Assembly: GCA_963761305.1 (NCBI GenBank)
Contig: CAVXGK010000002.1
Span: 640,001-704,000, forward strand
Origin: an uncultured Gemmatimonadaceae bacterium
GTDB taxonomy: Bacteria > Gemmatimonadota > Gemmatimonadetes > Gemmatimonadales > Gemmatimonadaceae
DNA: 64,000 bases
Direction of reading: 5' to 3'
Shown here piece by piece: positions 12,915 through 42,500 of this stretch. Position numbers and translations under genes: made by a program. Below the pieces are notes generated by a model. That model did not search any database. It worked only from the letters and a program-made list of their open reading frames with translations, and was not told the DNA's origin. How positions within the stretch are numbered: the first letter of the stretch is position 1; each line of letters opens with the position of its first letter.

Positions 12915-12922
12915 TCCGCAGT

Positions 12923-15311: not shown

Positions 15312-15329
15312 CCGCTCCGGTTTCGGCTG

Positions 15330-16200
15330 ACGGCTATCGGTACGCCGGTGAGACGTCGGCCGGCGCGCGGCCGATGCGATCGCACGACGACGGAGATCGG
15401 TCCGTCGACGACGGAGTTCGGTCCGTCGACGACGGAGTTCGGTCCGTCGACGACGGAGTTCGGTCCGTCGGCGGCGGATTGCGGTCATGAGTTCACTGAC
15501 TTCGGTCTGAGCTCGCCGGACTTCGGTCCTTTGCTGCGTTGCCGCAACATTTGTGGCACGCATCTCGATCCGTTGACGATTCGCGGCAGGAGTTTGCTGG
15601 CTTTGCGTCGTCCGGAGCTCGCGTTGCGCGGTCGTGAGTTGCCTTGGAGCAGTCTGGCGCGGGCGATCGACGATGCGTAACGCCCGGAGTGCCGGCATGA
15701 GCTGAAACCGAACGGGGCATTGCTCGCCGGATCCATAATCGTCGCGCGCGACGGTGTTGAAATGTGGATTGCCGCCGGTAGTTGACGGCGGTTCCACGGC
15801 TCGTCACAGATTGATGACGGGGAGTCGCGAGCGCACCACGATCCTGCCTCGACGGAGTTCGGTCACTTCGCGGCGGAACGCGATCCGTCGTCGAGTGAAC
15901 TCGCGGAGGTGACGACGCAACGGCGGGTGGTGGCGATGAAAATCGCGCGATGTGGCGCGCACGCCACGGCGAAGCGATTTGAGTTCGCGCCGTGACGAGG
16001 GATGTCCGACTCGTGGCGGAGTTGATGCGATCAGCGGCGAGTTGCAACCGAGGATCGACGCATTGGCGTCGGGGCGGAGCCGAGTGTTCGCGTGGACGTC
16101 CAGAGTGAAATCGGGTCACGTGAGAGTTGTACGCGGCGCGCGACGCCCGCATCCGAAGTCTTTCCACAAGAGTGCGGGCCGCACCGAAGTGAGAGTCGGA
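15330..16200 (+). repeat. Degenerate 21-bp-periodic tract 1 (core 4x CGACGACGGAGTTCGGTCCGT at 15385-15468)
   Basis: Near-perfect units, then degenerate ones; GACGGAGTTCGGTC recurs at 15851, exactly 441 (21x21) bp after 15410; boundaries approximate. Confidence 0.8.
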
Positions 16201-16212
16201 CGACGTGGAGTG

Positions 16213-16323
16213 AGCGGGTGGACGGGTAGACGGGTAGACGGGTGGACCGGTAGACCGGTAGACCGGTAGACCGGTAGACCGGTAGACCGGGCGACCGGTA
16301 GAACGGGAGACGGGAGATGGGAA
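16213..16323 (+). repeat. 8-bp tandem array (GACGGGTR/GACCGGTA, ~13 units)
   Basis: gacgggta x2, gacgggtg, gaccggta x5, gaccgggc, gaccggta... Confidence 0.9.
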
Positions 16324-16431
16324 GAGCTCGCGAGCCTCGAGATCGCACGGCACTTGAGCTTCCCATCACAACCAATTGCCCACGCGGAGCTTAACTCAGT
16401 CAATCGACGCGCCGATTTAGCGCGGATTTCG

Positions 16432-16460
16432 TTGCGTCCGCCGCCCGAATCGTCTAGATT
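16432..16460 (+). promoter_or_regulatory. Putative sigma70 promoter of ssrA
   Basis: TTGCGT-17bp-TAGATT, 11 nt upstream of the mature 5' end. Confidence 0.55.
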
Positions 16461-16471
16461 TCGTAGAGTAA

Positions 16472-16827
16472 GGGGGCGACTGGCTTCGACGGGGTATGTG
16501 AAGCCGTGGCTGCGTGCCGAGGTCGTGGGGCACCTCGTTAAACACTCCGCAAACTTCCAACTGCGAACAACAACTTCGCCCTTGCCGCCTAACTTTTAGT
16601 TAGGCCTGCAAGTGCCTGAGAGGAAGCCCGCCCGGGGCGGCTTCTCAGGTATCGGAAATCCGGGATTGCTGGCTCGACCGCCTCCGGCGGGCCGGTGAAA
16701 TCAAGGGGGCTCATCCGCGAGTGGGTCGTTCGCCAACCAGCGCGCGGAAACATCTAACGGCGGACTACGCACGTAGTGGCTGTGGTCGATCTATTCTCGG
16801 ACCCGGGTTCAATTCCCGGCGCCTCCA
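16472..16827 (+). ncRNA. ssrA: tmRNA; tag peptide (A)ANNNFALAA* at 16563-16592
   Basis: 5' GGGGGCGACTGGCTTCGAC; T-arm CCGGGTTCAATTCCCGG; acceptor GGGGGCG/CGCCTCC with G3.U, discriminator A; tag ORF ends ALAA-TAA; CCA not encoded. Confidence 0.95.
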
Positions 16828-16849
16828 TGCCGAGGGAATCCAGCATGAT

Positions 16850-16886
16850 GCAACGGCGTCCAGAAATGGGCGCCGTTGCTCGTTTT
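16850..16886 (+). terminator. Intrinsic terminator after ssrA
   Basis: GCAACGGCGTCCA-GAAA-TGGGCGCCGTTGC followed by TCGTTTT. Confidence 0.75.
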
Positions 16887-17068
16887 ACCCAGTGAAACTC
16901 GTCCAATCCAGACTTGACGCGTCCGACCTTCGCCCGGCGCGGCGCCTGCGACTTGGATCGAGAGAGCACCGGCTTCCTAATCCAAACATGACGCACTATG
17001 AGGATGCGTTTTCATAGTGCGGCATGAGTGTTTATAGGCACGATTTTGCGCCATTGGCAGGCATGGAC

Positions 17069-17091
17069 CGGCAAACATTACGGCAAACATT
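17069..17091. repeat. Tandem 11-bp direct repeat CGGCAAACATT x2
   Basis: 17069-79 and 17081-91; a hairpin lies nearby at 16987-17026. Confidence 0.6.
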
Positions 17092-17288
17092 CTCACGTCG
17101 GCCAACGCTAGAGCATCCGCACGGTGAGGAACACACTCGGGGCCATTGCCGAAGTACTTCGTTGCGTCGCGTAGCCGGCCGTCGGCCTCATCGCCCTCGT
17201 CTATTTCCGGAACGAGCTTAAGGGCCTAGTCAAGTCGGAGGAACGGAGGCGAAATACCCGGCGAAGGTCGCCCAGTCTCGTCGGTGCC

Positions 17289-17646
17289 TCATCGCTGCGC
17301 TCCGTTCGCAGCAATCAGCAAGGCAACTGCTTCCGAGTAGCGCTCCCATTTGGAGAGTTCGATGGCGAGGCGCCCACGGCCGGCGGCGGTGAGGCGATAA
17401 AACTTGGCTCTGCGTCCCGCTGGTGTCTGGCCCCAGTGAGTCGAGCCAGCCCTTGTCCTCCATTCGGTGAAGCGCCGGATACAGTGCCCCTTCTTCCACC
17501 CGAAGGCGTTCCACCGTGGACTCCTCGATCCAACGGAGAACGGCGAGGCCGTGCCTCGGTCCCCACGAGAGAGTCCTCAAAATGAGAAGATCGAGCGTCC
17601 CACGAAGCAGTTCGAGATCTGATTTGTCGAGGGCAGCGGGTGCCAA
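17289..17646 (-). pseudogene. PadR-family regulator, frameshifted at ~17436
   Basis: LLRGTLDLLILRTLSWGPRHG..EEGALYPALHRME, then in another frame WGQTPAGRRAKFYRLTAAG..WERY; no intact permease gene follows. Confidence 0.8.
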
Positions 17647-17678
17647 AGGGCGCCTCTGATATATAAGGTTGTTAGGCC

Positions 17679-17708
17679 AGACTATCTCGACGCTTCGAGG
17701 ACTGTCAA
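17679..17708 (-). promoter_or_regulatory. Promoter of decayed padR with palindromic operator candidate
   Basis: TTGACA-18bp-TAGTCT on minus strand, with CTCGA-N4-TCGAG in the spacer. Confidence 0.55.
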
Positions 17709-17776
17709 GGCGCCTCTTTCTCGGCCAACCGTCGCGCCATTGCGGGATTGTTACATGACGGGCATATTCGCGCGGG

Positions 17777-18424
17777 TTGTCGCCAGTTGTTCTCCCCTCC
17801 CCCGCGACAACTGAGGCCTCAGCTGTGCCCCCGTCTCTGCGGCTATCCTCGAGTTCGTCCAACATCGCGTCGTCCTCTCCTCGGCCGCTCTCGGACGAGG
17901 AGCTGTTGCGGCAATTAGCCCTCGACGAAACGCGGGCGCTCGAGGTAGCGCTGGCTCGCTACTGGACGCTGGTCGTCGACTACGTCGCGCGGCTCACGCA
18001 CTCCGAGGACGCCGCGCAGGACGTTGCCCAACGCGCGTTCTGCCAACTGTGGGATCGCCGGGCCCAATGGGCGGCCGCCGGATCGCTCCGTGCGCTCATC
18101 TGCCGCATCGCGCGCAACTATGCCATCAGCGATTATCGCCGCCAACAAGCCGACGAGCGGAGCGCCGCGACATTCCTGGAGTTGAGCGGGCCGTCAGCGG
18201 CAACGGTGTCGGACGGCGACACCACCCGCCTTCGCGCGATCATCGATCGCGAGATGGCACGTTTGCCGGAACGGCGCCGCGAGATTCTTGTCCTTCGCTG
18301 CTACCACGACCTCTCGTACAGAGAGATCGCCGAGGTGATGGGAATCGCCGAGCAGACCGTGGCGAACCAGCTCAGCAAAGGGCTCGCGGCGCTTCGAAAA
18401 TCTCTGGGACGGCTGCTCGACTGA
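17777..18424 (+). CDS. ECF sigma-70 factor (FecI-like)
   Basis: Region 2 DAAQDVAQRAFCQLW; region 4 LPERRREIL..LSYREIAEVMGIAEQTVANQLSKG; start uncertain. Confidence 0.88.
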   Translation: MSPVVLPSPATTEASAVPPSLRLSSSSSNIASSSPRPLSDEELLRQLALDETRALEVALARYWTLVVDYVARLTHSEDAAQDVAQRAFCQLWDRRAQWAAAGSLRALICRIARNYAISDYRRQQADERSAATFLELSGPSAATVSDGDTTRLRAIIDREMARLPERRREILVLRCYHDLSYREIAEVMGIAEQTVANQLSKGLAALRKSLGRLLD

Positions 18425-18467
18425 CGACCCAATAGTAGAGCAAGCGCCGCTGGTGCGTGTAAGGGCG

Positions 18468-21400
18468 ATGCGATCCCTTTCCATCGCCGCCGCGTTGCCT
18501 TTTTGCCTCGTTGCCAGCCCCGCCGCCGTTGCCCAGCGGGGCGGTCGGACGAGTCCGCCGATTTCCCAACCGGCCGTCGCGATTTCGCGGCCCTGGCCGA
18601 ACGCCGCGAGTTGGCGGCAGATCGGCCCGGCGGCGTTCGGCGGCCGAGTGAACGACATCGAAGCCGTACCTAGCGACCCTCACGTGATTTTCGTCGCCAC
18701 CGCGGCGGGCGGCGTCTTCCGAAGCAAGAACAACGGTACCACGTGGGACGCCACGTTCGACGGTTTCGGAAATACTCTCTCGATCGGCGACATCGCCATC
18801 GCACCGAGCAACCCGAATGTCGTGTGGGTGGGGACGGGCGAAGCAAACAATCGCCAAAGCTCGACGTGGGGCGACGGCGTCTATCGCTCGACCGACGGCG
18901 GCACGAGCTGGCGTCACATGGGCTTGGCCGAAACGCAGAGCATCGGCCGCATCGTCATCGATCGCCACAATCCGGATATCGTCTTTGTCGCCGCGGTCGG
19001 CCATCTCTTCGGGCCGAACGACGAGCGCGGCCTCTATCGCACGAGAGACGGCGGAGCGACCTGGCAGCGCGTGCTGTGGGTGGACGCCAACACCGGTGCC
19101 ACTGACGTCGTGATCTCTCCGGATGGGCGCACGCTGGTGGCGGCAACCTATCAGCGCCGGCGCCGCGAGTTCGGATTCGCCGGCAGCGGACCTGGCAGCG
19201 CGCTGTGGCGGTCCACCGACGGCGGCGACACCTGGTCGCGCGTGACGAACGGCTTGCCCGCCGCCGACCTCGGACGGATCGGCCTCGACATCTCGGCGAG
19301 CAATCCAAACGTCGTGTACGCGGTCGTCGAGGCTTTCCCGCCGGGGGGAGGCGTCTATCGGTCGGACGACGGCGGCGCGACGTGGGCGCGACGCAACGCG
19401 GTCAATCAACGGGGCAACTACTTCAGTCAGATTCGCGTCGATCCCAAGAACCCGAATCACGTCTGGTTGCTCGCTACCGCGCTCGTCGCGTCGCATGACG
19501 GCGGGACGACGTTCTCCAGCGACTCAATCGCGCCCTATGCGCATCCCGACCATCACGCGATGTGGATCGACCCGAACGATCCGCGGCACGTCATGCTCGG
19601 CAACGACGGTGGCGTGTACTTCTCGTACGACGACGGGCGTTCGTGGAGCTACATCGACAATCTGCCGATCAGCCAGTTCTACGACATCGCCATCGATGAT
19701 CGCGAGCCGTACTGGATCTATGGAGGTGCCCAGGACAACGGCTCGTGGGCGTTTCCGAGCGCCACGTACTCGCGCGGCGGGATGACGAACCTGGACGTCC
19801 AGAACACCGGGTTCGGCGACGGTTTCCAATCGGCCGTGGATCCGCTCGATCGACGATTCGTTCATGCGAATTCTCAGAACGGCCGCGCGTTTCTCGCCGA
19901 CATGGTAACGCGCGAGGAACGCTTCATCCAGCCGGTCGCGGCGGCCGGGCAGGACCCTTATCGATTCAACTGGAACACGGCGATGCAGCAGTCGCCCAAC
20001 GATCCGCGCGCGCTCTACCTTGGCGCGCAGAAGTTGCTGCTTTCGACGGATCGGGGAACGACGTGGCGCGAGATCAGCCCCGATCTCACGAAACACCTCG
20101 GGCGCGGCCAGCTCAGCGTGGGCGACGGCTTTCCCGCAGGTCGATCGCTGTCGCAGAACGACGGCGTCAGCGCGTACGGCAACATCACGACGATCAGCGA
20201 GTCGCCGAAGGCGCGCGGCACGATCTACGTCGGGACGGACGACGGAAACGTGCAGATGACCACCGACGGCGGCGGCCATTGGACCGATCTGACGCCGCGC
20301 TTCGCGATGCCGCAGACGCGCTACGTGAGCAAGGTCTACGCGTCTCGGCACGACGCGCGCACCGCCTACGCTGCATTCGACGGGCACTGGGACGACGACA
20401 ACAAGCCCTATCTGTTCAGCACCGATGACGGTGGTGCGACGTGGAAATCGATTGCCGCCGACCTTCCGAACTGGAAGCCCGTCAAAACCATCGAGGAAGA
20501 TCCGCGCGATCCGCGGGTGCTCTTCGCCGGCACCGAGTTCGGTCTGTACTGGACGAGTGACGCCGGTGCTCACTGGTTGCCGGCGAGCGGGAACGTGCCG
20601 CCGGTGATGGTCGATCGAATCATCGTCAATCCCAAGAACAACGATCTCATCGTGGCGACGCACGGCCGCGGCGTGATGATTCTCGACGACATCGCACCGA
20701 TCGAAGCATCGGCTGGACTAGACGACGTCCGGTTGTTCGCGCTGCGACCGGCGACCGAGGTGCAGATGTATCGCGACCTTCCATGGCCTGGTGGAAACGC
20801 GTTCGTCGCGCCCAACGCCCCGGTCGGTACTTACATCTCGTACGCGCTTGCCAACGATCCGCGCACGGCCGACAGCGTGAGGATCCGGATCTCGGCACCC
20901 GACGGCGCCGTGGTGAACGAGATGGTCGGCCCGGATCGACGCGGAACGTTCCGTGTGTTGTGGGACCTGCGCTACCGCTTCAAGTACGTGCCGCCGCCGT
21001 CCGATTCCGGCTTCTACGGCCCGCCGCGAGCGCCGTACGTGGCACCCGGCGAGTATACCATCGCGCTCACGGCGCGGGGCCGAACGGTGACGCAGAAGGT
21101 GCGCGTGCAGAGCGATCCGCGCGCCGCGCGCACCGACGCCGGTTTGCGCGACCGCGCCGCGATGAATCTCCGTGCACGCGACCTGAGCCGCGTCTACTTC
21201 GACGCGATTGCGGCCCTCGACGCCATCGACGCCGAGCTGAAAACTCTGGGCGAGTCGACGGACAGCGCCGCCAAGGCGATCTCGGCGCGCGTCGTCACGC
21301 TGCGACAGCGGGCGCGAGGCAACAGCATCACCTCGGGGATCGGACGGCTTTTCGACCTTACTGCGGCGATCGAGTCGTCGTCGATGCCGCCGACCGACGC

Positions 21401-21551
21401 CCAGCATCGAAGCCTCGCTGCGTCGGTTGCCGAGTTCACCGATGTCACCACCGCGGTAAACGCCCTGATCACGACCGATCTCCCCGCGCTCCTGGCCGGG
21501 CTCGGCAGGCCGCCGAGCAACGCCATCGCCGTCGTCGCTCCGCCCACCTGA
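18468..21551 (+). CDS. Secreted VPS10/BNR Asp-box beta-propeller protein
   Basis: Signal peptide, WRQIGPA..GGRV, repeated S/TxDGGxTW boxes, HPDHHAMWIDP, YGGAQDNG, ATHGRG. Confidence 0.88.
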   Translation: MRSLSIAAALPFCLVASPAAVAQRGGRTSPPISQPAVAISRPWPNAASWRQIGPAAFGGRVNDIEAVPSDPHVIFVATAAGGVFRSKNNGTTWDATFDGFGNTLSIGDIAIAPSNPNVVWVGTGEANNRQSSTWGDGVYRSTDGGTSWRHMGLAETQSIGRIVIDRHNPDIVFVAAVGHLFGPNDERGLYRTRDGGATWQRVLWVDANTGATDVVISPDGRTLVAATYQRRRREFGFAGSGPGSALWRSTDGGDTWSRVTNGLPAADLGRIGLDISASNPNVVYAVVEAFPPGGGVYRSDDGGATWARRNAVNQRGNYFSQIRVDPKNPNHVWLLATALVASHDGGTTFSSDSIAPYAHPDHHAMWIDPNDPRHVMLGNDGGVYFSYDDGRSWSYIDNLPISQFYDIAIDDREPYWIYGGAQDNGSWAFPSATYSRGGMTNLDVQNTGFGDGFQSAVDPLDRRFVHANSQNGRAFLADMVTREERFIQPVAAAGQDPYRFNWNTAMQQSPNDPRALYLGAQKLLLSTDRGTTWREISPDLTKHLGRGQLSVGDGFPAGRSLSQNDGVSAYGNITTISESPKARGTIYVGTDDGNVQMTTDGGGHWTDLTPRFAMPQTRYVSKVYASRHDARTAYAAFDGHWDDDNKPYLFSTDDGGATWKSIAADLPNWKPVKTIEEDPRDPRVLFAGTEFGLYWTSDAGAHWLPASGNVPPVMVDRIIVNPKNNDLIVATHGRGVMILDDIAPIEASAGLDDVRLFALRPATEVQMYRDLPWPGGNAFVAPNAPVGTYISYALANDPRTADSVRIRISAPDGAVVNEMVGPDRRGTFRVLWDLRYRFKYVPPPSDSGFYGPPRAPYVAPGEYTIALTARGRTVTQKVRVQSDPRAARTDAGLRDRAAMNLRARDLSRVYFDAIAALDAIDAELKTLGESTDSAAKAISARVVTLRQRARGNSITSGIGRLFDLTAAIESSSMPPTDAQHRSLAASVAEFTDVTTAVNALITTDLPALLAGLGRPPSNAIAVVAPPT

Positions 21552-21572
21552 TCGTTCTCACAACACACTTCC

Positions 21573-23273
21573 ATGAAACTCGCATCGCTGTCCCGCGCGC
21601 TTCCCATGGCCAGTCTGGCGCTCTCTCCCGGCATCGCCTGGGCGGAGAGGCACCACCCCGTTCCGATGGCCACGCCGCGATTCGAAATCACGTTTCCGGC
21701 AGCGGCTCACCCCGGGCCGATCACCGGGCGACTCGTGCTCGTCGTCGCCAAGACCGCGCAGCCCGAGCCGCGACTCGCCATTTCGCCGCGCGGGCCGGCG
21801 TTGTTCGCGATCGACGTCGACCAGTGGTCGCCGGGCCGTGCCGTCGTCATCGACGAGGCCGCGCTCGGCTACCCGATGGCCCTCTCGGCGCTGCCACCCG
21901 GCGACTATTTCGTCCAGGCCATCATCAACGTCTACGAGCAAGTTCACCGCGCGGACGGCAAGACCGTGTGGCTGCCGATGAACGACGGGAACATCGAGTT
22001 CTTCAGCAACGCGGCGCACAATCTCTACAGCGACGTGGTTCCGGTTCATGTGGGCGGCGACGGGGCGGAGGCAAACGCTTTCAAGGTCGACGTCACTCAC
22101 GTCCTGCCCGCGTTCACTCGCCCGAAGGACACCGAGTGGATCAAGCAGGTGACGTTCCAGAGCCCGATGCTCACCAAGTTCTGGGGCCGCCCGATTTTCA
22201 TGCACGCGTCGGTGCTTCTGCCCAAAGGTTACGACCAGCATCCGGCGACCCACTACCCGACGGTCTACACCCTCGGCCACGGCGAGTCTCCGCTCAGCTT
22301 CTCGACGAACCCGCCGCGCGCGGGCGCGCCGGCCGGCGTCAGTCCGGTGACCGGCACCGAGAGCGGGTATGCGACGTTCCAAAAGTGGAACGCCGACGAC
22401 TATCCGCGCGTGGTCTGCATCAGCCTACAGCAGCAGACGCCCTATTTCCCCGACTCGTACTCGGTGAACTCGGCGAACAACGGCCCGTACGGCGACGCCG
22501 TCGTGGAGGAGATGATTCCGTTCCTCGAGAAGACCTTCCGTCTGATCGCCAAGCCATACGCCCGACAGCTGGAAGGCGCATCGACCAGCGGGTGGCAAAC
22601 GCTGGCGCTCCAGCTCCAACATCCCGAGTTCTTCGGCGGCGCGTGGGTTTTCCAGCCCGATCCGATCGATTTCACGCGCTATCAGGAAGTCAACATCTAC
22701 ACGGACACGAACGCGTTCGACGTTCAAACCGGCCCCTTCACCAAGACGGAGCGCTATTTCCAACGCACGACCGACGGGCAGACGCTGTTCACAACCCGAG
22801 AGCTGAGCCGGTTCGAGGCGGTGCTCGGAAGCCACGGTCGTTCGGCGTACCAGCTCGAGGCGTGGGAAGCGGTCTATGGTCCGATCGGCGCAGACGGTTA
22901 TCCGGTGCCGCTCTGGGACAAGGCGACGGGACACATCGACCACACGGTCGCCGAGTACATGCGCGACCACGGTTTCGATCTGCGCGCGTACGCCGAGAAG
23001 AATTGGCCGACGATCGGGTCGCAGCTCGTCGGCAAGCTGCACTTCTCGGCCGGCGACATGGACGACTACTGGCTGAACCTAGCCGTCTACAAGTTCGAGG
23101 ATTTTCTCAAGACGACGACGAACCCGCATTACGAGGGCGACTTCGTGTACGGGCGTCCCATGAAAGGCCATTCGTGGCACTATGCCCCGTGGGCCGATTT
23201 CATCCGCAAGGTCGCCACGACGGTCAAGGCGCAGGCGCCGGCCGGCGAAAACCCCACTCTCTGGAATTACTGA
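21573..23273 (+). CDS. Secreted alpha/beta-hydrolase (esterase-like)
   Basis: Signal peptide, SYSVNSANNGPYGDA, nucleophile elbow GASTSGW, GDMDDYWL, C-terminal His. Confidence 0.75.
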   Translation: MKLASLSRALPMASLALSPGIAWAERHHPVPMATPRFEITFPAAAHPGPITGRLVLVVAKTAQPEPRLAISPRGPALFAIDVDQWSPGRAVVIDEAALGYPMALSALPPGDYFVQAIINVYEQVHRADGKTVWLPMNDGNIEFFSNAAHNLYSDVVPVHVGGDGAEANAFKVDVTHVLPAFTRPKDTEWIKQVTFQSPMLTKFWGRPIFMHASVLLPKGYDQHPATHYPTVYTLGHGESPLSFSTNPPRAGAPAGVSPVTGTESGYATFQKWNADDYPRVVCISLQQQTPYFPDSYSVNSANNGPYGDAVVEEMIPFLEKTFRLIAKPYARQLEGASTSGWQTLALQLQHPEFFGGAWVFQPDPIDFTRYQEVNIYTDTNAFDVQTGPFTKTERYFQRTTDGQTLFTTRELSRFEAVLGSHGRSAYQLEAWEAVYGPIGADGYPVPLWDKATGHIDHTVAEYMRDHGFDLRAYAEKNWPTIGSQLVGKLHFSAGDMDDYWLNLAVYKFEDFLKTTTNPHYEGDFVYGRPMKGHSWHYAPWADFIRKVATTVKAQAPAGENPTLWNY

Positions 23274-23344
23274 TGGTAGATCGTCGCCTCCACGTGCGTG
23301 TGGGCGATGCAGACTCTCTCCCTCGGGATCGAGGTCCCACCTAC

Positions 23345-25128: not shown

Positions 25129-25167
25129 CGCAGCGCACATGCGCGCGTCGAACGTCCTTCCAGAGGA

Positions 25168-28100
25168 ATGAGGAACATGAGGACAACACTTCGTACGAGT
25201 GCCTTGTACGCCGCGATGGGATCGGCGTTGACTCTCGCGCTTGCCGCGCGGACCGCGTCGGCGGTCGCGACGCGCGGCGATGCTATCGAGCGCCGCCAGT
25301 CGGACGACGTACTCGAGCGGCCGGCGCGTCTCGAGGTGCGAGACGTGGCGCTGGCCATGGCGTTGCGTGACCTCGCCCACCATGCACGCGTCGCACTGGT
25401 CTACAGTCCGAGCCTCGTGCCCGAGGTCACCGTGAGTTGCCGCTGTGCGGCCGCCACGACTCGGGAGGCCCTCGAGACGTTGCTTGTGAAGACGACGCTG
25501 ACGTTTCGAGAAGCCGATGGACAGGTGATGCTGGTTCCGGCGCCGCTGCAACGTTTCGAGGTGCCGGCGGCGGGTGCCGATGACACGTCCGTGCCGGCGG
25601 CGATCACGCTGGCATCGTCCGACGTGTCGGCCGTCCCGAGCCGGCGCCAGTTCGCCGACTCGTCGATTGTGGTCGGCCAAGCGACGAGCGATGCCGGCGC
25701 ACCGATTGCGGCGGCGCTGGTGACGATTCCCGATCTGCGCCTCTCGACCACGACGAGCGACGCCGGCCTGTTCCGACTGGTCGTTCCCCCGGATCGATAC
25801 AGCGCGAGGATTGACACACTGCACGTCGTGCGGATCGGGTATCGGCCCGCGCTGATCCCATTTCAACTGAGGCCGGGCCGCGTCGTTGTCGACGTCGTAA
25901 TGTCGGCGGCGGCTGTGGCACTCGACCAGATCGTCGTCACCGGCACGGCCGGAAATCAGGAACGCCGCGCCCAGGCCGCCGTCGTCGCCAGCGTCGACGC
26001 GACGGACCTCATGGCGAAGGCGCCGGTGCTCGACGTGAGCCAGCTCCTCTACGCCCAGACGCCGGGTGTCTCGATGACGACGGCGTCGGGAACGAGCGGC
26101 GCCAATACCAGAATCGACATACGCGGCCAGGCTTCGATCTCTCTCTCGAACTATCCCCTCGTCTTCATCGACGGCGTGCGCGTGACTGCCGGCCCGCGCG
26201 GCACGGCAGGCAGCGGCGTCGGCGGCCAGACGTTGAGCGCACTCAACGACCTCAACCCCGACGACATCGAAAGCATCGAGGTCGTGAAAGGTCCGGCGGC
26301 GGCAACGCTGTACGGCGCCGACGCGTCAGCTGGCGTGATTCAGATTCTCACGAAGAAGGGACGGCCGGGCGCGCGTCGGTTCTCGCAGAAGGTGACGCTC
26401 GAATACGACAACCTGAGTCCGAACTTCACCCCGTACACCAACTACGCGAAGTGCACCGCCACGCTCGTGGCGGCGACGAGCACGAATCCATTGTGCAATG
26501 GCCAGGCGGTCGGAGCAGTCGTCTCCGACAACGTCCTGGTCCGCAACGACGTGTTCACCAACGGTTCGGCGGGCACGCTCGGGTACAGCGTGCAAGGCGG
26601 GGGCGACAACTTCGGGTACTACGGCTCGTTCGACGCGACGAACGAGCAGGGCACCACGCCGGACAACTTCCTGAACCATCGCAGCGGCCGCATCAACTTT
26701 ACCTGGATCGCCACGCCGAAGGTGTCGGTGGACGCCAGCGTCTCGGTCGCACGGATGGACGACAAGCTGCCCAAAGGCGATCAGGATACCGATGGATTTC
26801 TCTTGGGCGGCGATTTCGGATCGCCGCTGTCGGTGACCAGGGATCCGACCGGCGCGCTCGCCGGCGGTTGGTTCATCGCGTCGGAAAACGTGCAGGCCAT
26901 CTCGGCGATCAATACGGAGGACAACACCCTTCGCGCGACGCCAAGCGTGCAACTGCACTACACGCCGGTTTCGTGGTTCACCAACCGCCTCACGCTCGGC
27001 GAAGACTTCACGCACATCCTGGCCAGCCAGCTCTACCCAAAGAACAACCTCAATTGGTACAGCTCGTTGCAAAACACCGGCGTCATCTCGGTGAGCGAGT
27101 CAGACGCCAACCTCTACACGGCCGACTACCTCGGAAATCTGAGCGGCCGCTTTGGGCCGGCCGGTCGCATGTCGTCCGATTTCTCGTTCGGCAGCCAATG
27201 GATCAACACCGTGAGCAGTGGACTGGGCGGTGTCGGGACGGGATTGCTGACCAATACGAACGACGTCGTCGGCGCGGCGACGACGTCGACGGCATCGCAG
27301 AGCTACGCCCAGTCGAAGTCGTTCGGCTACTTCGGGCAAGAGCAGCTCGGGCTGAACGATCGGCTTTTTCTGGAGGCCGGCGCGCGTGTAGATCGGAACT
27401 CGGCGTTCGGTAAGAATTACGGAGCCTTCTTTCTGCCCAAAGCCGGCATCTCGTACGTCCTGTCGCAGGAACCGTTTTGGCAGGAACGACTCTCGAACAT
27501 TTCCACATTCCGCCTGCGCGCTGCCTACGGGACGACCGGCCGCTCGCCCAGTAGCACTGCGGCTCTCCAGACGTATAGCAAGGCCAATTACATAACCGAC
27601 GCGGGCGTCGTCCAACCGGGCGTGTCGCCGGGCAGCCCGGGGAACGCGAATCTCGAGCCCGAGCGGGGGTCGGAGTTCGAGGGAGGTTTCGACGCCGGAT
27701 TCCTTCACGATCGCGTCGGTCTCGAGGCAACGTACTTCGACAAGCGCTCGAAAAACTTGTTGCTGAGCCTCCCGATCGCGCCGTCGTCAGGTTTCTCATC
27801 GAGCCCGCTAGTAAACATCGGTGAGGTGTCGAACAAGGGCTATGAATTGTCGCTGCGCGCCACGCCGGTTTCGACGCGCAACGTGACCTGGGACTTCACG
27901 GCGACGGCGAACACCGTCCAGAACCGCATCGAGAACATGGGATCGGTGGCGCCGTTCGTGAGCAGCAACAACCAGTGCTTCAAGCCGGGCATGGAAGTGG
28001 GCGCCTGGTGCGTGCCGCAAGTCGTGCGCGTGGACACCGTGGCCAACAAGGCGTTCGTCACCGACACCGCCGTCAACGTCGGCGGTCAGTTGGCCAAATT

Positions 28101-28611: not shown

Positions 28612-28621
28612 GAAGACGCCA

Positions 28622-29868: not shown

Positions 29869-29875
29869 CGCAGTG

Positions 29876-32058: not shown

Positions 32059-32161
32059 GCGCTTCAGAACACCGAGTCCGGGCCGGTGAGCGATCACGAC
32101 GAAGCCACACGGTGCGGCGCACACCCGGCTGGCCGCCCGAGCGCGTCAATCGAACACGGGC

Positions 32162-34710: not shown

Positions 34711-34789
34711 GCGGCGAACGGCAGCTGTCGCGCGGTTCATTCGACGTGGTCACCTCGTTTTTTGTGGACAAACGCTTCCGAGCAACAGC

Positions 34790-34931
34790 ATGCACGCAGG
34801 CGCCTCTTACGCGTGGGAGCCTCTGTTCGAGGTGAACACCATCCCGGTGTCAGAGATAGCCATCGAATACTACGCTTCCGCCGCTCACGCGCCGGTCAAG
34901 TACGCAGTTCTCAATTCACAGTGCGGCGTGA
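34790..34931 (+). pseudogene. Fragment resembling the C-terminus of a plug-domain protein
   Basis: PLFEVNTIPVSEIAIEYYASAAHAPVKYAVLNSQCGV; no N-terminus. Confidence 0.45.
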
Positions 34932-35024
34932 AGGAGTCGTTGTTCGGGCCGCTGATGGCCCCGACGGTCTTCGTCACGAGTGGGGCGGTCACGGGTCCGA
35001 TCTGGCAGCCAACGCGTATGGTTC

Positions 35025-35550
35025 CATGCTCGCAGCCTATCCGCGCACGTCCGGCGCGGTCAACGGTTACGGCGTGGCCGGCGCTTTGAGGGCGTCGCCC
35101 CAGCGGAGGTTGCCTAATCAGCTCGATGCTATGATGCTGCTCCAGGCGCGAGTCTTTTGGAGAAATGACATGGCACAGGCTCAACCAGGCGGCGATCCGA
35201 TGACCGCCGTGCGTTTCATGCTGCCGCCTGGAGCCGCCCACGCCCTACTCGAGGAGGCGGTGTTCGCGCGCGCCTGTGACGCTGGGTTTGCCGACCCACG
35301 GCTTGAGTTCGAGGACAGCAATCAGTCCAAGGAAACTCGAATCGCGTGCGGCATCCCGATGGCGCGATTCGTTCTCGCGGAATTGCGGCGCATCAAATCC
35401 CAACGGCAAGACGAACTCGGGATCTCGTTCCATTTGACAGTAGCGGCGATCGTGGTGCGACGTGCGATCGAAGCGCGCGAGCTGCGAACGTAGCGTCGGC
35501 ATGCTCGCATGCCTATCCGCGCGCGGCCGATGGGGTCAACGGCTACGGCG
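35025..35550 (-). repeat. Two ~50-bp imperfect direct repeats (35025-35074, 35500-35550), promoter-like on minus strand
   Basis: catgctcgca-gcctatccgcgc..ggtcaacggttacggcg vs catgctcgcatgcctatccgcgc..ggtcaacggctacggcg. Confidence 0.8.
35170..35493 (+). CDS. Hypothetical protein
   Basis: Protein-like ORF (MTAVRFMLPPGAAHALLEEAVF...) between the two repeats. Confidence 0.45.
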   Translation: MAQAQPGGDPMTAVRFMLPPGAAHALLEEAVFARACDAGFADPRLEFEDSNQSKETRIACGIPMARFVLAELRRIKSQRQDELGISFHLTVAAIVVRRAIEARELRT

Positions 35551-35629
35551 GGGGCAGTCGGTCAGTTTGGCCGTGACCTTAAAGCAGTGTTTGCTAGCGA
35601 AAAATCGCCGGACGCACCAATCTGTCAGG

Positions 35630-35950
35630 GTGAGCGATTACAACCACGCCGCAGAAATCGCGGGCGCGCTTGCAGCGCGCCTCGCCGAAGTCAGCTTCCC
35701 GCTGCCCGCGCCCCTGGAGCGCGAGATTCAGCGGCAAGTGTGCGAGTACGCCGATGAACTCAAGGGGCTCGGCTTGCCGCCCGAACGCGTCATTGTCGCC
35801 GTGAAGCGGGTCGCGAACGAGGCGGGCGTCTCCTCGACCTCGCGCATCGTTCCGTCGCCGACGCTGCTGGAAGGAAAGGACAAGCTGCTCGTCGACATGG
35901 TCGGCTGGTGCATCGAGCGGTACTACTACCGTTCATCACGCGCCGACTAA
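35630..35950 (+). CDS. Small helical hypothetical protein
   Basis: VCEYADELKGLGLPPERVIVAVKRVA..MVGWCIERYY; hairpin follows the stop. Confidence 0.6.
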   Translation: MSDYNHAAEIAGALAARLAEVSFPLPAPLEREIQRQVCEYADELKGLGLPPERVIVAVKRVANEAGVSSTSRIVPSPTLLEGKDKLLVDMVGWCIERYYYRSSRAD

Positions 35951-36170
35951 CTGACCCGCCAGCCACCGGCTTGGCGGGCTGGGTCTCCCACACATATCGC
36001 TGTCGCCGTCACAGGCGAATAGCGAAAACGAAAAACGCCCCGCACGATGAACGGTGCAGTTGGATCGGTGCGCGTTGGCTTGTCGCGTGGCCGACGCGAT
36101 TCTCGTGATAGTCTCCAGATGCTGTAGGTCCCTGACTGACCACCAACCATCTTCGGGTAGGGAACCGCCA

Positions 36171-36365
36171 ATGAACGCACGACGCGACGCCGTATTCGCA
36201 TGCCTCATGCTCGCCGCCCGAACCGCTTCGATGCCGGCGCAGTGTAGCGTGGCGACACTCAATGGGACCTTCGGGTTCTACATCGACGGGTACGCAGCTT
36301 CACACAATCCTGTCGCCGCCGTTGGGATCGCGACCTTTGATGGGAAAGGAACGGGCGCAGATTGA
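36171..36365 (+). pseudogene. Truncated secreted protein
   Basis: Signal peptide, then QCSVATLNGTFGF..AVGIATFDGKG, ending abruptly at the padR promoter. Confidence 0.45.
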
Positions 36366-36377
36366 GTTGGTGATACC

Positions 36378-36417
36378 TTGACCTCCGACAACAGTCGTCG
36401 TAAGCTGTTGTCGAAGG
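36378..36417 (+). promoter_or_regulatory. padR promoter overlapped by an inverted repeat
   Basis: TTGACC-17bp-TAAGCT; IR CCTCCGACAACAG / CTGTTGTCGAAGG. Confidence 0.6.
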
Positions 36418-36442
36418 TTGAGGTAACTCCAATCCGCTCGCC

Positions 36443-36772
36443 ATGACCGAACGCGCTGACCTGCTTCAGGGCACGCTCGACCTCCTCATCCTCAAGAGTC
36501 TCCTCGCCGGCCCGCTCCACGGCTGGGGTGTGTCCAAGCGCATCCGCGATTGGTCGCGCGACGTGCTCCAGATCAACCAGGGCTCGTTGTACCCGGCGCT
36601 CTATCGCCTCGAGGAACGCGGGCTGATTCGCGCCGAGTGGGGCACGTCGGACGAGGGGCGACGAGCGAAGTTCTACACCCTCACGGCGACCGGCCGAAAA
36701 CAGTTCACGGGCGAGCGCGCCGATTGGCGGCGGTTCGCGGCCGCCATCGAAGAAGTGCTCCAGGCGACATGA
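36443..36772 (+). CDS. PadR-family regulator (Acidobacterial type)
   Basis: LLQGTLDLLILKSL..LHGWG..QGSLYPALYRLE..WG..GRRAKFY. Confidence 0.92.
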   Translation: MTERADLLQGTLDLLILKSLLAGPLHGWGVSKRIRDWSRDVLQINQGSLYPALYRLEERGLIRAEWGTSDEGRRAKFYTLTATGRKQFTGERADWRRFAAAIEEVLQAT

Positions 36773-39409
36773 TCCGCTGGCGGACGCTCCAGTCGCTCGT
36801 CCAGCGCTCGACGCGCGAGCGCGAGATGGACGAGGAGATGCGCTTCCACGTCGAGATGGAAGCCGCGGAACTCACGCGTGGCGGCATGCCCCCGGACGAA
36901 GCGCGCCGCGTGGCCGCCGCGACATTCGGCGGTGTCGAGCGGCACAAGGACGACGCCCGCGACGCCATCGGGATACGCCTGCTCGACGACTTGGGACAGG
37001 ACGTTCGTTACGCCCTGCGACAGCTCCGCGTGAGCCCGGGATTTGCCGCGGCGACGATTCTCACGCTCGGACTTGGCGTCGGCGCCACGACCACGATGTA
37101 CACGATCGATCGCGCGATCACCGTCGCGAACGTGGCCGTTCGCGCGTCCCGACGAGCTGGTCCACTTCGCGCAGGGCACGGGTGGCGACTGCAACGCGTG
37201 CTGGCGGCTGGCGAAAGGGAATTACATGACCGTGCGCGACGAATCGCGTACGCTGACCGGCGTGACCCTCGTCGCTGGCTGGAGCGCGATTCTTCGCGGT
37301 CCGGAACACACCGAAATCGTCAGCGGCGCGAAGGTGACGCCGGCGATGTTCGAGATGCTCGGCGTGCCGGCGCTGCTCGGCCGCACGATCGTGACCGCGG
37401 ACAGCGCTGAGGGCCGCCGCAACGCGGTCGTCGTGAGCGAGGTGCTCTGGCGCACGCGTTTTGGTGCCGATTCCAACATCGTCGGCTCGACGATCGTCCT
37501 CGACGCCATTCCACGGACAATCGTCGGCGTCATCTCGGCACGATACACGTTTCCCCATGACGTGATGGTGTGGGCGCCGAGGATTCTCGGGCCTGCCGAT
37601 GCGAGCGACCGTTCGTGGACGAACGACGACGCCATCGGCCGTTTGCGCCCGGGTGTGACAATGGCGCAAGCGCGTGTCGAGCTGGCGACGATCGCCGCAC
37701 GTCTCGGCATCGAGTATCCGGCGGCGATGAAGCACTGGACGATCGACGCGATGCCGTTCAGGGATTGGTTGGCGCCGGGCCACAACGACAAGACCGCCAA
37801 TTTACTCTTTGCCGCCGTCGGGCTCGTGCTGCTCATCGCGTGCACCAACCTCGCCGGATTGCTGCTGGCACGACTCACCGCGCGACAGAAGGAGATTGCC
37901 GTTCGCGCGGCCATGGGCGCGAGCGCGGCGCGAATCGCCCGGCAACTACTCACGGAAACGGTACTCGTGACGCTGATCGCCGGAGCCGTGGGCGCCGGTG
38001 TCGCCGCCGCGGCGACGCATCTCATTCGCGATGGGATGCCCGACTTCGTCATCGAGCAACTTCCCAACTGGGGCTCGATGGGAATCGACGTCACGGCGCT
38101 GCTCGTCGCGCTTGGGACGGGCGCCATCACGGGTTTCATCATCGGGCTGTGGCCTGCGTGGCAGTTCGGACGGCCAGCCCTGGTGAATGTGCTCAAAGAC
38201 GGCGCGCGGACCGCTACGTCGGGACGTCCCTCGAGGACGCGGCGCGGCCTCGTCATCGCCGAAGTTGCTTTCGCCATCGTGCTGCTCGCAGCGGCAGGGC
38301 TTCTCACACGGACGCTGCGCAATCTTCACGCGGTGCATCCGGGATTCCGCGCCGACCACGTGCTCGCGTTTCGCATTACCGGGCCGCCGCGGGTCCCGGG
38401 TGACAGCCTGCCGCTGGATTCCCTCAAGTTCGATCGGCTCTCCTCAATGATCGACGCGGTTCCCGGCGTCATCCGCGCCGCCGCCGTTTTCGGTGCGCCG
38501 TACACGCACTCCGCGAGCACCAATGGATTCGGCATTCGGGGCACGGAGTCAGACCGTCCCGGGCACGGCTACAGCGTGCGCATGATCCCCGCCAGCGCGG
38601 ACTACTTCGAAACGCTCGAGATCCCGATCGTGCGGGGAAGAGCGTTCACATCGAATGACCGCTCGGGCACGGCGCCCGTCGCCATCGTCGACCAGACGGT
38701 CGCGCGGCGTTTCTTCGCCACCCAGGATCCGATCGGCCGCTTCATCCATATCGACGGCGTTTACTGGCAAATCGTCGGCATCGCCTCGGACACGCGCTAC
38801 GACACGCGCGATCGGAAGGTCGCGATGTACCCAGGCGAGGTCTATCGCCCGATGGCGCAGTGGCCGTGGCGCCAAGCGCAGTTCGTCGTGAGGGCGAAAG
38901 GCAACCCCCTCGACGTCGCGCCCGCCGTCGCGCGAATCGTTCATGATTTCGACCCCGACCTCGCCCTCACTCGCGTTCAAACGATGGAGTCGGTGATCGA
39001 TGAAGACGTAGCGCCGGACCGCATGATCTCGGGAATGATGCTCGGCTTCGCGATCGCCGCCGTGATCATCGCCGCCATCGGGCTGTACGGCTTGATCAGC
39101 TACGGCGTCGCCCAGCGCGTTCGCGAGTTCGGCATTCGCCGCGCGCTTGGTGCGGAGTCGTCGGCGCTGCTCTCGCTCGTACTCGGGCAGGGGCTTCGTC
39201 TCGCGGCCTTGGGATCGCTACTGGGTCTCGCCGGCGCGTTGGCCACGACGCGACTCATGGGCGCGCTGCTCTACGGCGTTTCGCCGATGGATCCCGTCAC
39301 GCTCGTCGCCGTGGTGGCCGCGATGTGCCTCGTTGGATTGGCGGCGGCGTTCATACCGGCGCGCCGGGCCAGCATCGCCGATCCGATGGAGTCGTTGCGC
39401 GAGGAGTGA
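36769..39409 (+). CDS. ADOP-type duplicated ABC permease (MacB/FtsX x2), frameshifted at ~37121
   Basis: EMDEEMRFHVEME prefix, QDVRYALRQL, LLIACTNLAGLLLAR, REFGIRRALGA, DPMESLREE; coupled to padR. Confidence 0.88.
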
Positions 39410-39703
39410 CGCGAGGGGCCCGGTTTCGTCTCAACGTTCACACGATCAATAGTGAACTCCGACTTCGGTGACTCGAGCCTCTCTACTTATTACTTATCCG
39501 CCGACCGCGGTTTCGGGGTATCCCCTAACCGTCGTGAACAGTTATAAGCGTCAGCCGAGCGTCATCGCGGCGTATAAAGTCGTTCAATTGAAGGTTTAGA
39601 AGATCATGGGCCCGCGAGAATGACGCCTCGATCGCCGGCGGCGGCTCGGCGATGCGGGCAGTTAAGTCCGTCTGGCGACGGATAACGTCGGGCAGAAACT
39701 AAG

Positions 39704-39766
39704 CTCTCCTAGATCGACTAGGCGAAGATCCGCAGCACTCGACTTTGCCTAAATCGTCTAGGAGAG
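39704..39766. repeat. Inverted repeat of two 24-bp arms, each with an internal CCTA-N7-TAGG dyad
   Basis: CTCTCCTAGATCGACTAGGCGAAG ... CTTTGCCTAAATCGTCTAGGAGAG. Confidence 0.7.
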
Positions 39767-39830
39767 AGCGCCCGCGAATCGCCGAACTTCGCCGTCTTGT
39801 GGGCCCGGCTGCCAGCAAGAATGGGTCACT

Positions 39831-39929
39831 ATGACCGGCCTCGGCGTGGTAAAGTTCTTCAATGAGGCTTTTACAGCCGGCAAAATTTGCCCTGCCCCAA
39901 AACGCGATCCGGCGATAAGACATAAGTAG
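39831..39929 (+). pseudogene. Possible cold-shock protein N-terminal remnant
   Basis: MTGLGVVKFFNEA matches the CSD start G.VK[WF]FN; KGFGF and the rest are absent. Confidence 0.35.
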
Positions 39930-39999
39930 AGAGGCGCGTGTCGCGAAGTTCTCGCCCGCCTCCCGGCGCAGCAGCGCGAACGGCCATGCCTCACCCGTT

Positions 40000-40515
40000 C
40001 ACATCCGAAACCGTTGAGTAGGCCGACTCGCGCCGCCGGCTCCGCCGAGCCGGCGTGGGCGTAGCGGGCACCACTCGCCGCTCCGCGACCATTCGCGAGC
40101 GTTGACGCGGCGTTCTCGAGGTCGACGCAGAGCGTTCGACCGTCGCACGCATTCACTCGACCGTGTTCACCGTTCACTCGACGGCGTTCATCGTTCACTC
40201 GACGGCGTTCACCGTTCACTCGACGGCGTTCATCCTTCGCTCGACGGCCTTCGTCGTTCACTCGACCGAGTTCGCCTTTCACTCGGCGCGGAACCGTCTA
40301 CACTGGGCCGATCTCAACACCCATCACAAGGAGGTGCCACAACATCGCCGCATGAACCGCTCACGTTGGAGCTCGTGAAGACGACGTCGACACGTCTCGA
40401 GCGAGCATCAACTCACCGAAACGGCATTCAAGGAGGCAAGGCGACGGCATCAATTGTTCGGAAACGCAGTTCACAAGGACTGCAAGACAGCTCGACAGCA
40501 GTTCATCTAATCATT
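40000..40515 (+). repeat. Degenerate 21-bp-periodic tract 2 (core 7 units TTCACTCGACGGCGTTCACCG, 40152-40298)
   Basis: Units read directly; flanks degenerate; boundaries approximate. Confidence 0.8.
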
Positions 40516-40532
40516 CATGTGTCGGAGGACAC

Positions 40533-40720
40533 TTGAACAGTTTACAAGAACGGATCTACAACCCCGGCCACCGCATGCAGGCGTTCTTGATCACCAACGA
40601 CGCGGTGTTGGGCACCATCAACAAGTCGGGAATGCGCGCCGACCTCGACGCGATCGTCGATGCACTCGGCGACAGCGGCGGCCAACAGGCCGCGGGGCGC
40701 GTCAACGCGATCGGCGTCGT
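40533..40720 (+). pseudogene. 5' fragment of a helical hypothetical protein gene
   Basis: GGAGG RBS + TTG; MNSLQERIYNPGHRMQAFLITNDAVLGTINKSGMRADLDAIVDALG.., then runs into the 3' end of the convergent kinase gene. Confidence 0.5.
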
Positions 40721-40753
40721 TCCGACTGAGCTCCTCGGCCGCCTCGAGCGCGA

Positions 40754-41680
40754 TCAGGCAGTAGCCGGTGCAAACACGTTCCGCACCGCCTGGACGTGCG
40801 GTGTCAGATCCGAGCCTGCCTCGTACGCATACGCGAGGTGGATGGTCGCGAGCGTCTGAGACATTGTGCGCATCCGCGTTCGGAACCCGTCGTCGACTCT
40901 GAGCGGATAGTGCATCAGCACCTGCTCGACGAAGGGCCAGCCCTGCCACGCCGCGACAAAAACAAAATCTCGCGCGGCATCGCCAAGCGTCATGCCCGTC
41001 CAATCCAGAATACCGGTGAGAGTGCCGGCGTTCGGGTTCACCAGGACGTTCTCGGTCGACAGATCGCCGTGAACTGGCTGCAGCCGACCACCCCACGGCT
41101 CAGCCGACAGCGGGATTTCGCTCAGCCAAGTCGCGGCTCGATCGACGACCGGATCGATCCCTTTCAGTTGTTGTACGACGGCAACACCGTGTTCGACCCA
41201 TTCGCGAGCTCCCTCCTCGTTCGGGTCACTCTCTCGAATTCCAGCGGCGCGGGCTGCGCTTTCGGGAATCGAGTGGAGCGCCCCGAGCAGTGTCGCGATT
41301 TCTCGCCCGACCGCTGGAAAGAGGCTCGCAGGAACCGAATCGGCCGGAACACCGGAGATGAAGCGGTGGCCGGCGAATCTGTACGGATACCCGAGCGCCG
41401 GCGCGCCGACTCGCTCCACTCGGGGAACCGAGATGTTCGACGGGAGCCTGTCGGCGACGAGACGATGAGCGCTCGCCTCGGCGTCGAACAGATCCGCGCA
41501 CCAGCCATGACGTGGGAAGCGAAAGACCCAGTCGTCTGTGGTCAGGAACACGTCGAAGTGCCAGCCCGATCCCAGTGCTCGCAGAGCTTCTGCGTCAATG
41601 TCGGGGAAGCGCGTTGCGATGATTCCAGCCGCCGTCGCCGGCGTGAGCGGGTAATCAGGTTTCCACGGCGAAATACTCAT
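40754..41680 (-). CDS. Aminoglycoside phosphotransferase-like kinase
   Basis: LGSGW, WVFRFPR, HGDLSTENVLV, GILDW, GDAARDF. Confidence 0.85.
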   Translation of the reverse strand: MSISPWKPDYPLTPATAAGIIATRFPDIDAEALRALGSGWHFDVFLTTDDWVFRFPRHGWCADLFDAEASAHRLVADRLPSNISVPRVERVGAPALGYPYRFAGHRFISGVPADSVPASLFPAVGREIATLLGALHSIPESAARAAGIRESDPNEEGAREWVEHGVAVVQQLKGIDPVVDRAATWLSEIPLSAEPWGGRLQPVHGDLSTENVLVNPNAGTLTGILDWTGMTLGDAARDFVFVAAWQGWPFVEQVLMHYPLRVDDGFRTRMRTMSQTLATIHLAYAYEAGSDLTPHVQAVRNVFAPATA

Positions 41681-41764
41681 TCGATGGAAGGGAGAGTGAG
41701 CGGTTCGCTCGGCCGGCGGCTGCACCCGGGTCGAGCATCCAATTTGTCTCATCGAACAATCGAC

Positions 41765-42500
41765 CGCCACCAAGCCGACTCTCTACGCCACCAGCGAACA
41801 AACGAGTTTCCCGAACGACGAGCTGACTTTCCCGTCGGTGCACGTCCCCGGTTGCATCGAAGAGATCATCGCCACCGTCGCACGAAGTCATTGGTCGCAT
41901 CGGGCGAGGCGGCCGGCCGACGCGACGAGTTCATCGGAAACACTGCGGAGGTCATCGTACACCACTACAACGATCGGTCGACTCACCGCCGAGGTCAGTG
42001 CCACCACCGCGGAGTTCAGTGCCATCACCGCGGAGTTCAGTGCCATCCCCGCGGAGGGCATCGCACTGCGCGCGCCAACGAATTGGTCGCAATGCGTGTG
42101 GGAGTGGCAACATCGGCGCACGACATCGTCCTGCTCGCAGAGGCGATCGCCACCGTCGCTTCGTTCATCGCCACCAGCGGCGGGTTCACCGCACCGGCCG
42201 TCGAGTTGATCGGAACCGGCGCTGAGCCCTGTGGTCGCGCGACATCTGGTATCGGTCGCAATGCATAGGGCACTGGCACCACCGCGTGGATGACGCGAAC
42301 CACTCGATGCGTCTCAACGCCACCGGTCGAGAGATGACCTGACCCCTCCGCGAAGGTCACCGCCACCACCGCGAGCCTTACCGGTCGCGGCGCGTAGATC
42401 ACCGTCTCGCCTGCCGAACCGATCGCCACCAAGGGGAAGTCGATGCGACGGTCTGTCGAACCCATCGCCACCATCCCGCAAGGCATCGCCACCAAGAAAT
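41765..42500 (+). repeat. Degenerate 21-bp-periodic tract 3 (~35 units; core CACCGCGGAGTTCAGTGCCAT at 41984-42067)
   Basis: CGCCACC and GAGTTC recur at 21-bp spacing across ~740 bp. Confidence 0.8.

Follow-up and report, generated by a model that had tools for sequence, protein, structure and literature searches.

Period-21 tracts in a Gemmatimonadaceae genome belong to an undescribed cassette with a helical-bundle gene

What are long, degenerate arrays with a period of 21 bp doing between the genes of a soil bacterium? The question is raised by three such tracts, T1, T2 and T3, in a 64,000-nucleotide stretch of DNA (the window; positions 640,001 to 704,000 of contig CAVXGK010000002.1, assembly GCA_963761305.1) from an uncultured Gemmatimonadaceae bacterium. 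We label this source genome G000; other G and L numbers denote relative genomes and loci, the named relatives being Gemmatimonadaceae or unplaced metagenome-assembled genomes (MAGs). A sequence-only reading of the window had seen in the tracts phased protein-binding arrays, periodic RNAs or a hypervariable reservoir of coiled-coil heptads, and its best candidate for an undescribed system. We find that the tracts are non-coding and belong to a cassette in which a periodic leader is linked to a gene for a helical-bundle protein, the period being retained and the sequence not. The suspicion of novelty has stood: no description of the cassette was found in the literature, judged from titles and abstract openings, with subscription journals not covered. 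T2 still adjoins part of the gene, whereas T1 and T3 are probably leaders of this dispersed cassette that have been orphaned.

The link to a gene begins at T2. Directly behind it come a ribosome site and then a helical-bundle gene, which is cut after 61 codons beside the 3' end of a gene of the APH family, and in front of T2 stands a paired motif; the sequence-only reading had mentioned neither. In a relative the counterpart gene is intact and continues past the break at ~40716, and T2 together with its motif pair and gene start is 84-90% identical to full-length copies in G000 itself, G024, G022, G005 and G017. In fact, G000 holds 13 intact paralogues, the T2 stub, four pseudogenes and further stubs, and the helical family at large counts 1,531 clusters at 50% identity and is found in 46 of 201 genomes of the phylum, all within two families.

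The period accompanies this gene very widely. Taking the best period between 5 and 45 in the 500 nt upstream of each gene, we obtained 21 or 42 in 13 of 14 G000 copies against 88 of 600 random control genes, in 24 of 27 loci from a phylum scan, mostly distant homologues (downstream of the gene, 5 of 25), and in all 24 further contig loci. The scan had returned 30 loci, of which 28 were analysed (two had already been seen) and one proved too short; four other contig loci were also too short, and their genomes partly overlap those already sampled. These counts include kin and are not independent, but gene and period go together in both main branches of the helical tree. Pooled autocorrelation of the upstream regions peaks solely at multiples of 21, with no peak at sub-periods of 7, 10-11 or 14, and the period is present also in loci that lack a perfect core and beside very distant proteins. 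The unit sequence, for its part, is unconserved: units vary freely between families, and whether taken from one array or from different families they have little in common beyond their CG/TTC content. We considered a universal unit motif and rejected it, the common profile being weak (information content 2.88, against 2.23 when column-shuffled and 2.60 for random strands).

Within the window, near-perfect cores lie where they had been claimed and measure 4.9 copies in T1, 6.4 in T2 and 3.6 in T3. Periodicity beyond the cores, also claimed, is there in most parts: measured as z at lags 21/42 against 300 dinucleotide shuffles, it reaches 5.4/7.6 in the T1 tail, 6.0/5.8 in the T3 tail, 2.9/1.7 in the T3 head and, weakly, 2.0/3.3 in the T2 tail behind the core, but the 5' part of T2 (39900-40135) has none (-0.4/1.5). 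The 14-mer GACGGAGTTCGGTC does recur exactly, at 15410 and 15851, a spacing of 441 or 21x21, and the retention of phase through sequence drift holds more widely than the window alone could show. The proposed core motif CnnCGG(A/C)GTTC is indeed on the plus strand in all three tracts (4, 3 and 2 matches), but eight of the nine matches fall inside cores and the tracts of the whole genome give 12 matches on plus and 11 on minus; profile similarity is at chance between T2 and T3 (p 0.32) and weak between T1 and either of the others (p 0.03).

The tracts are not co-oriented either, contrary to what had been read. Over ~500 nt the T1 profile aligns with the leader of a pseudogene copy in antisense (E 8e-12), and its other cross-family matches return the same verdict wherever the strand is known. 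Because those leaders are oriented by a gene remnant or a motif, T1 reads minus and T2, with its gene, plus. For T3 the indications from relatives conflict: motif arms enter three of them from the right, but one contains, in + orientation, an 83-nt patch (G000 C2:224572-224654) from T2. This patch is 94% identical to the end of T2, which suggests exchange between tract families.

The tracts of the window are members of a large population. At z>5, the 5.2 Mb of G000 hold 61 regions of period 21, where ten other periods give 4-47 each. Of the 61, 55 lie mostly between genes; for periods 15, 18, 22, 27, 30 and 33 the corresponding number is 0-3. Periods 14, 16, 20 and 24 give 12-31 intergenic regions, probably short microsatellites for the most part. 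When degenerate parts are included, whole tracts fall into colinear families of 65-92% identity; 28 of the 55 intergenic tracts adjoin a gene, remnant or motif, and 38 belong to the blastn family of a tract that does. The T1 family is linked to gene-bearing leaders by profile only. Non-coding period-21 regions number zero in 699 kb from two genomes without the gene and two in 400 kb of G005. Amid the drift of the T1 family a few islands are conserved, namely TGTTGAAATGTGGATT, the palindrome TGGCGCGCACGCCA, and TTTCCACA, which we take to be DnaA-box-like (window ~15757-15772, ~15952-15967 and ~16160-16168; alignment A3).

How the tracts evolve bears directly on what they encode. Across 19 tract pairs substitutions are flat over codon positions, whereas four gene controls show a third-position excess. 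Single nucleotides make up 64 of the 104 indels; among the 19 indels of >=10 nt, 13 lie within 1 of a multiple of 21, and the cores grow and shrink by 21, 42 or 63 nt. In 39 leaders, each of the six frames has as many stops as the dinucleotide composition predicts, with no T-T excess at 9/12 nt, and the earlier view that no credible protein covers the tracts is borne out by six open reading frames (ORFs) scanned without a Pfam match. Decayed or cryptic heptad-repeat ORFs, such as coiled-coil leader peptides, are thereby very improbable: some cores do translate heptad-like on the gene strand (LERDYSK in L167, LATLRNE, RLQRIEV), but the antisense strand scores equally well as coiled coil (31/51, p 0.24), and the stop counts, codon positions and dominance of 1-nt indels just described all tell against the heptad reservoir. 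A structured periodic RNA was rejected as well, the covariation term being -0.06 on four T1 copies (+ strand only) and the folding energy of the 39 leaders, ~5 kcal below shuffles, being alike on both strands; an Rfam scan of the window returned the transfer-messenger RNA (tmRNA) only. Mutagenesis is not base-biased, with rates in the T1 family equal for A, C, G and T (0.17-0.18) and near equal in T2.

What the leader may serve is best seen in the fullest copies. Their order is a divergent sigma gene of the extracytoplasmic function (ECF) type, the motif pair, the 21-nt leader, the helical gene, genes X and Y, an amidase gene and gene Z. The paired motif is bipartite and points outward (AAA..N~11..GAT(A/T)A..AAGTAG(A/G)GGG); 22 of its 23 loci adjoin a tract or gene, which together make up ~4% of the genome, and the search background amounts to two reversed-genome matches (E 0.45 and 0.57). 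From their position and bipartite shape, the arms are putative sigma-dependent promoters, one by which the sigma would regulate its own gene and one that would fire into the leader. Sigmas of the ECF type often autoregulate through their own promoter, as described in PMC7826278.

The sigma gene encodes ~190 aa with Sigma70 r4_2 and r2 (PF08281 and PF04542) and no further regions. In G000 the five best matches to its profile all stand upstream of a helical gene and are transcribed away from it; in four of these cases the motif pair lies in between. Within the DNA examined, a sigma gene stands before 5 of the 14 copies in G000, before 8 of 24 and 3 of 12 loci in relatives, and before 1 of the 27 loci of the phylum scan; 15 of these same matches had served to build the profile. 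X is predicted to have one membrane segment and a coil, Y to be a membrane protein and Z to be anchored at its N terminus, and by analogy these may be called holin- and spanin-like. The amidase matches Amidase_2 (E 7e-10 to 5e-15), and one of two scanned matches a PHROG endolysin (E 1.5e-6). The set of sigma, helical protein, X, Y, amidase and Z is complete in L168 (G000), L170 (G022) and L171 (G006) and near complete in L169 (G018), where the sigma is co-directional and Z is interrupted by a stop; partial cassettes occur in G023 and G010. In the tree of helical proteins, sigma and lysis-like genes occur in two supported clades that are separate from each other. By eye, no capsid, tail, terminase or integrase was recognised among the 98 ORFs of six cassette loci of 18-19 kb (20 of the 98 were scanned against PHROG). 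Elsewhere, motif pairs stand twice in tandem at G000 C1:16937-17369, C2:402062-402665 and L170:14146-14562, those of G000 C1 and G022 adjoining type IV pilin-like genes; the sigma may thus have further targets there.

The helical protein itself could be assigned to nothing in Pfam, NCBIfam, PHROG or PDB. In the predicted model (pLDDT 86) it forms a long bundle of helices and has a disordered tail. Foldseek returned nothing for this model at E<=0.001 and VIA a best Z of 9.3 among generic bundles; such a lack of fold matches is not proof of a new fold. Conserved basic or polar residues are R35, Q52, R70, H77, R155, R177 and R209. Two family assignments were tried and rejected: DUF6261 (PF19775) has no match in G000 and an atlas lead of only 0.86, and PQLLE (NF052641) scores 19 bits against a cut-off of 80, with 2 of 28 members matching weakly.

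Given that the fullest copies carry a sigma gene and cell-wall-lysis-like genes, the array is likely a control leader to which the helical protein would bind. As to how it might work, we tentatively favour, without going so far as to call it probable, a lysis-like unit switched by the sigma, in which the helical protein would bind to the periodic leader of its own gene, with binding, transcription and lysis all being predictions. The sigma would fire both motif arms, one onto its own gene and one into the leader; the helical protein would coat the 21-nt-phased leader, either as DNA, where each unit makes two helical turns, or as RNA, with one protomer or dimer per 21 nt and tolerance of sequence; and the coated leader would delay or gate read-through to the holin-, endolysin- and spanin-like genes. 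Recombination with flanking DNA would spread the copies, and subsequent decay would leave solo leaders such as T1 and T3. A bolder and rather doubtful version is that the helical protein reads spacing and polymerises on a leader of free sequence to form a timer, tunable by length, for a stand-alone lysis cassette that the sigma triggers, with the solo leaders as decoys or passengers, which would constitute a new class of switch or selfish element.

A good deal weighs against a sigma-switched lysis unit with a bound leader. The sigma is limited to the 5 of 14 G000 copies given above, two of these lacking region 2, and none lies within <=1.5 kb in any of 26 distant loci except L071. Of the 13 intact G000 copies only one is accompanied by lysis genes; in the T2 clade the motif pair is retained but sigma and lysis genes are both missing; and searches with X, Y and Z gave no match to a holin or spanin family, nor to any Pfam, PHROG or atlas family. 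The model of the helical protein matches no known nucleic-acid-binding fold. As for the array, that of gI, the complete cassette, is among the weakest (0.044), the distance from motif to start is not fixed modulo 21, and only 11 of the 19 tract pairs show a net length offset that falls within 2 nt of phase; the T2 leader has ~5-8% substitution per site against ~2% in the gene start, so its sequence constraint is weak. Finally, 27 of the 55 intergenic tracts have no adjoining gene or motif, 17 of them no blastn link to either, and 400 kb of G075, a genome with 12 helical genes, hold no non-coding period-21 region.

Several of these points would fit a self-perpetuating minisatellite without function of its own, in which an ancestral 21-nt leader repeat hitchhikes with the gene and whole-unit slippage or unequal exchange keeps the period. 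Unit-wise change of the cores, free unit sequence, faster substitution in the leader than in the gene and the many solo copies all suit it, and the genome also holds about 140 arrays of 8 bp. We nevertheless think it rather unlikely: the period outlasts the perfect cores and spans very distant proteins, and T1 copies at 65-71% identity stay nearly colinear in length over 500-700 nt. Moreover, bacterial deletion bias is expected to purge 400-800 nt of useless leader. Still less probable is a role of the helical protein as anti-sigma factor or in the timing of lysis, without any contact with the leader, whose length would merely delay its expression. The divergent sigma in some copies and in two clades, and a fold modelled as all-helical, are consistent with such a role, but most copies, the whole T2 clade included, have no sigma and yet keep the gene intact and under purifying selection, and the period of 21 is left unexplained.

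The dispersal of the copies could point instead to a selfish mobile element whose leader is the cis substrate copied by the helical protein or, in trans, by a host enzyme, solo tracts and pseudogenes being non-autonomous. In fact, the 13 intact, four pseudogene and several clipped copies occupy unrelated genomic sites; the element is patchy within the genus (12 of 24); and one pseudogene family was duplicated after its decay (76-89% identical, with common frameshifts and no codon bias). T1 is missing from the same larB-tmRNA site in all four congeners that have both flanks, its family is absent from 30 of 30 other genus genomes, and 5 of its 6 copies abut the stop of a convergent gene. We still judge this unlikely. 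Scanning 48 of the 120 flanking ORFs revealed no transposase, integrase or reverse transcriptase that consistently accompanies the copies, and the helical protein shows no catalytic motif or fold. Cassette ends are ragged, long flank duplications are no more frequent than in controls (2 of 34 against 3 of 60), and there is none of the base-biased mutagenesis looked for above. Half of the 10 other T2-type copies sit at one inherited site beside a PadR gene, and neither the helical gene nor the cassette was found in plasmid, phage or viral collections.

Some details of the insertion sites deserve mention. The larB-tmRNA interval (window 15312-16471; L057-L060) holds different genes in each of four congeners and is thus a variable site upstream of tmRNA. 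The T2 copy is clipped at 39457, because most other copies have ~30 more bases in common. An empty-site comparison for T2/T3 gave three permease matches of 76-77% identity followed by pruA; since pruA lies elsewhere in G000, these may be paralogues, and the right-flank gene of that site was not found in five congeners. Long degenerate duplications flank the inserted unit on both sides at L107 (G024:C15), G000 C1:276-278 kb and G000 C2:225177 v 231160, and one such duplication repeats the 3' end of the upstream gene. A resemblance to IS1595-type elements or to miniature inverted-repeat transposable elements (MITEs) was considered and dropped: PF12762 is absent from G000 (93% complete), the motif pair is at one end, and there is no regular flank duplication. 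In G023 an IS1595-like transposase (L173:2817-3880) lies 3.5 kb behind a partial cassette and has no paired motif.

How does the cassette compare with known systems? Phage late or lysis units comprise a regulator, a late promoter, a leader and holin, endolysin and spanin genes, as in the lambdoid Q-pR'-S-R-Rz or in late genes driven by phage sigmas. The cassette resembles them in its regulator gene beside a promoter-like motif, long leader, small membrane proteins, amidase and N-anchored protein; it differs in having no recognised structural or integration genes, an unnamed helical gene in first place, a period-21 leader and lysis genes that are mostly lost. Like the autoregulated ECF modules described in PMC7826278, it has a sigma of ~190 aa with Sigma70 r2 and r4_2 and a conserved motif upstream of the sigma's own gene, whereas, in contrast to the modules treated there, its target is divergent and would be reached from a second motif copy through a periodic leader, and no anti-sigma domain is recognised.

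The tracts share unit-wise expansion and dispersed intergenic copies, often behind stop codons, with minisatellites or variable-number tandem repeats (VNTRs), with repetitive extragenic palindromes and bacterial interspersed mosaic elements (REP/BIME) and with MITEs. Unlike all of these, they conserve period rather than sequence and are tied to one protein family over deep time; unlike REP/BIME and MITEs, they have an inverted motif pair at one end only, and no Y1/RAYT or MITE-type partner was found. Plasmid iterons, parC centromeres and TRAP-bound leader repeats likewise place an array directly upstream of the gene for a (here candidate) binding protein, and 21 bp is two helical turns; those arrays, however, hold a sequence motif, whereas tract units share so little, and there is no plasmid context such as iterons and parC have. 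A helical-bundle protein beside repeats also recalls diversity-generating retroelements (DGRs) and four-helix-bundle genes such as the Avd-like proteins and the 23S rRNA intervening-sequence protein (IVP), and Avd scores Z 7.9 among generic bundles. Yet DGRs would have a reverse transcriptase as constant neighbour and adenine-biased change, neither of which was seen (48 neighbours scanned), and, in contrast to the Avd-like and IVP genes, the helical protein has no PF05635 match and the period is 21 rather than 7-9.

Table 1. Coordinates of the tracts and adjoining features in the window.
Feature	Position	Strand	Remarks
T1, orphan period-21 leader	15330..16200	- (strand inferred)	Core 15385-15486; one of 6 colinear G000 copies, 65-71% identical, all without helical gene
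Left arm of paired outward-pointing motif	39461..39537	-	Faces the sigma gene where the cassette is full; no sigma gene here
Right arm of paired motif, pointing into T2	39880..39952	+	Putative promoter
T2, non-coding leader with period-21 array	39953..40520	+	Core 40152-40285; periodic from ~40136
Helical-bundle gene stub, 5' ~61 codons of a ~255-aa gene	40533..40716	+	GGAGG ribosome site upstream; homology ends ~40716
APH-family phosphotransferase gene	40754..41680	-	PF01636, E 3e-27; context outside the cassette, between stub and T3
T3, orphan period-21 tract	41701..42556		Core 41983-42057; its family has 6 members in G000; T3 itself lacks a helical gene

The window holds a few further features of this general kind (Table 1 lists those of the cassette). 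Tandem arrays of 16 bp (CGAAGAGCGAAGCTAA-like) at 11517-11638, 12617-12756 and 12820-12915 bracket a DUF3667 gene, the third being inverted, and period-16 regions number 47 in G000. Arrays of the 8-bp kind (GGTAGACC type) occur at 16217-16311 and 11673-11701; since they adjoin only 4 of the 61 period-21 regions, they are probably a separate phenomenon. A weak period-21 signal (z 3-4) at 25500-26000 falls within a long coding gene, and no sigma-70 consensus promoter was found within 39400-42700.

A period that is conserved across very distant homologues while the sequence is left free would, if true, be an unusual way to encode binding sites, and in any case the tract period marks a protein family of more than a thousand clusters that has so far had no annotation. 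All parts of the cassette are short and can be tested in Escherichia coli. What emerges is a lysis-like cassette, linked to a sigma factor but to no recognisable phage, in a soil lineage that is abundant and poorly cultured; it would be relevant to programmed lysis and to the release of DNA by soil bacteria.

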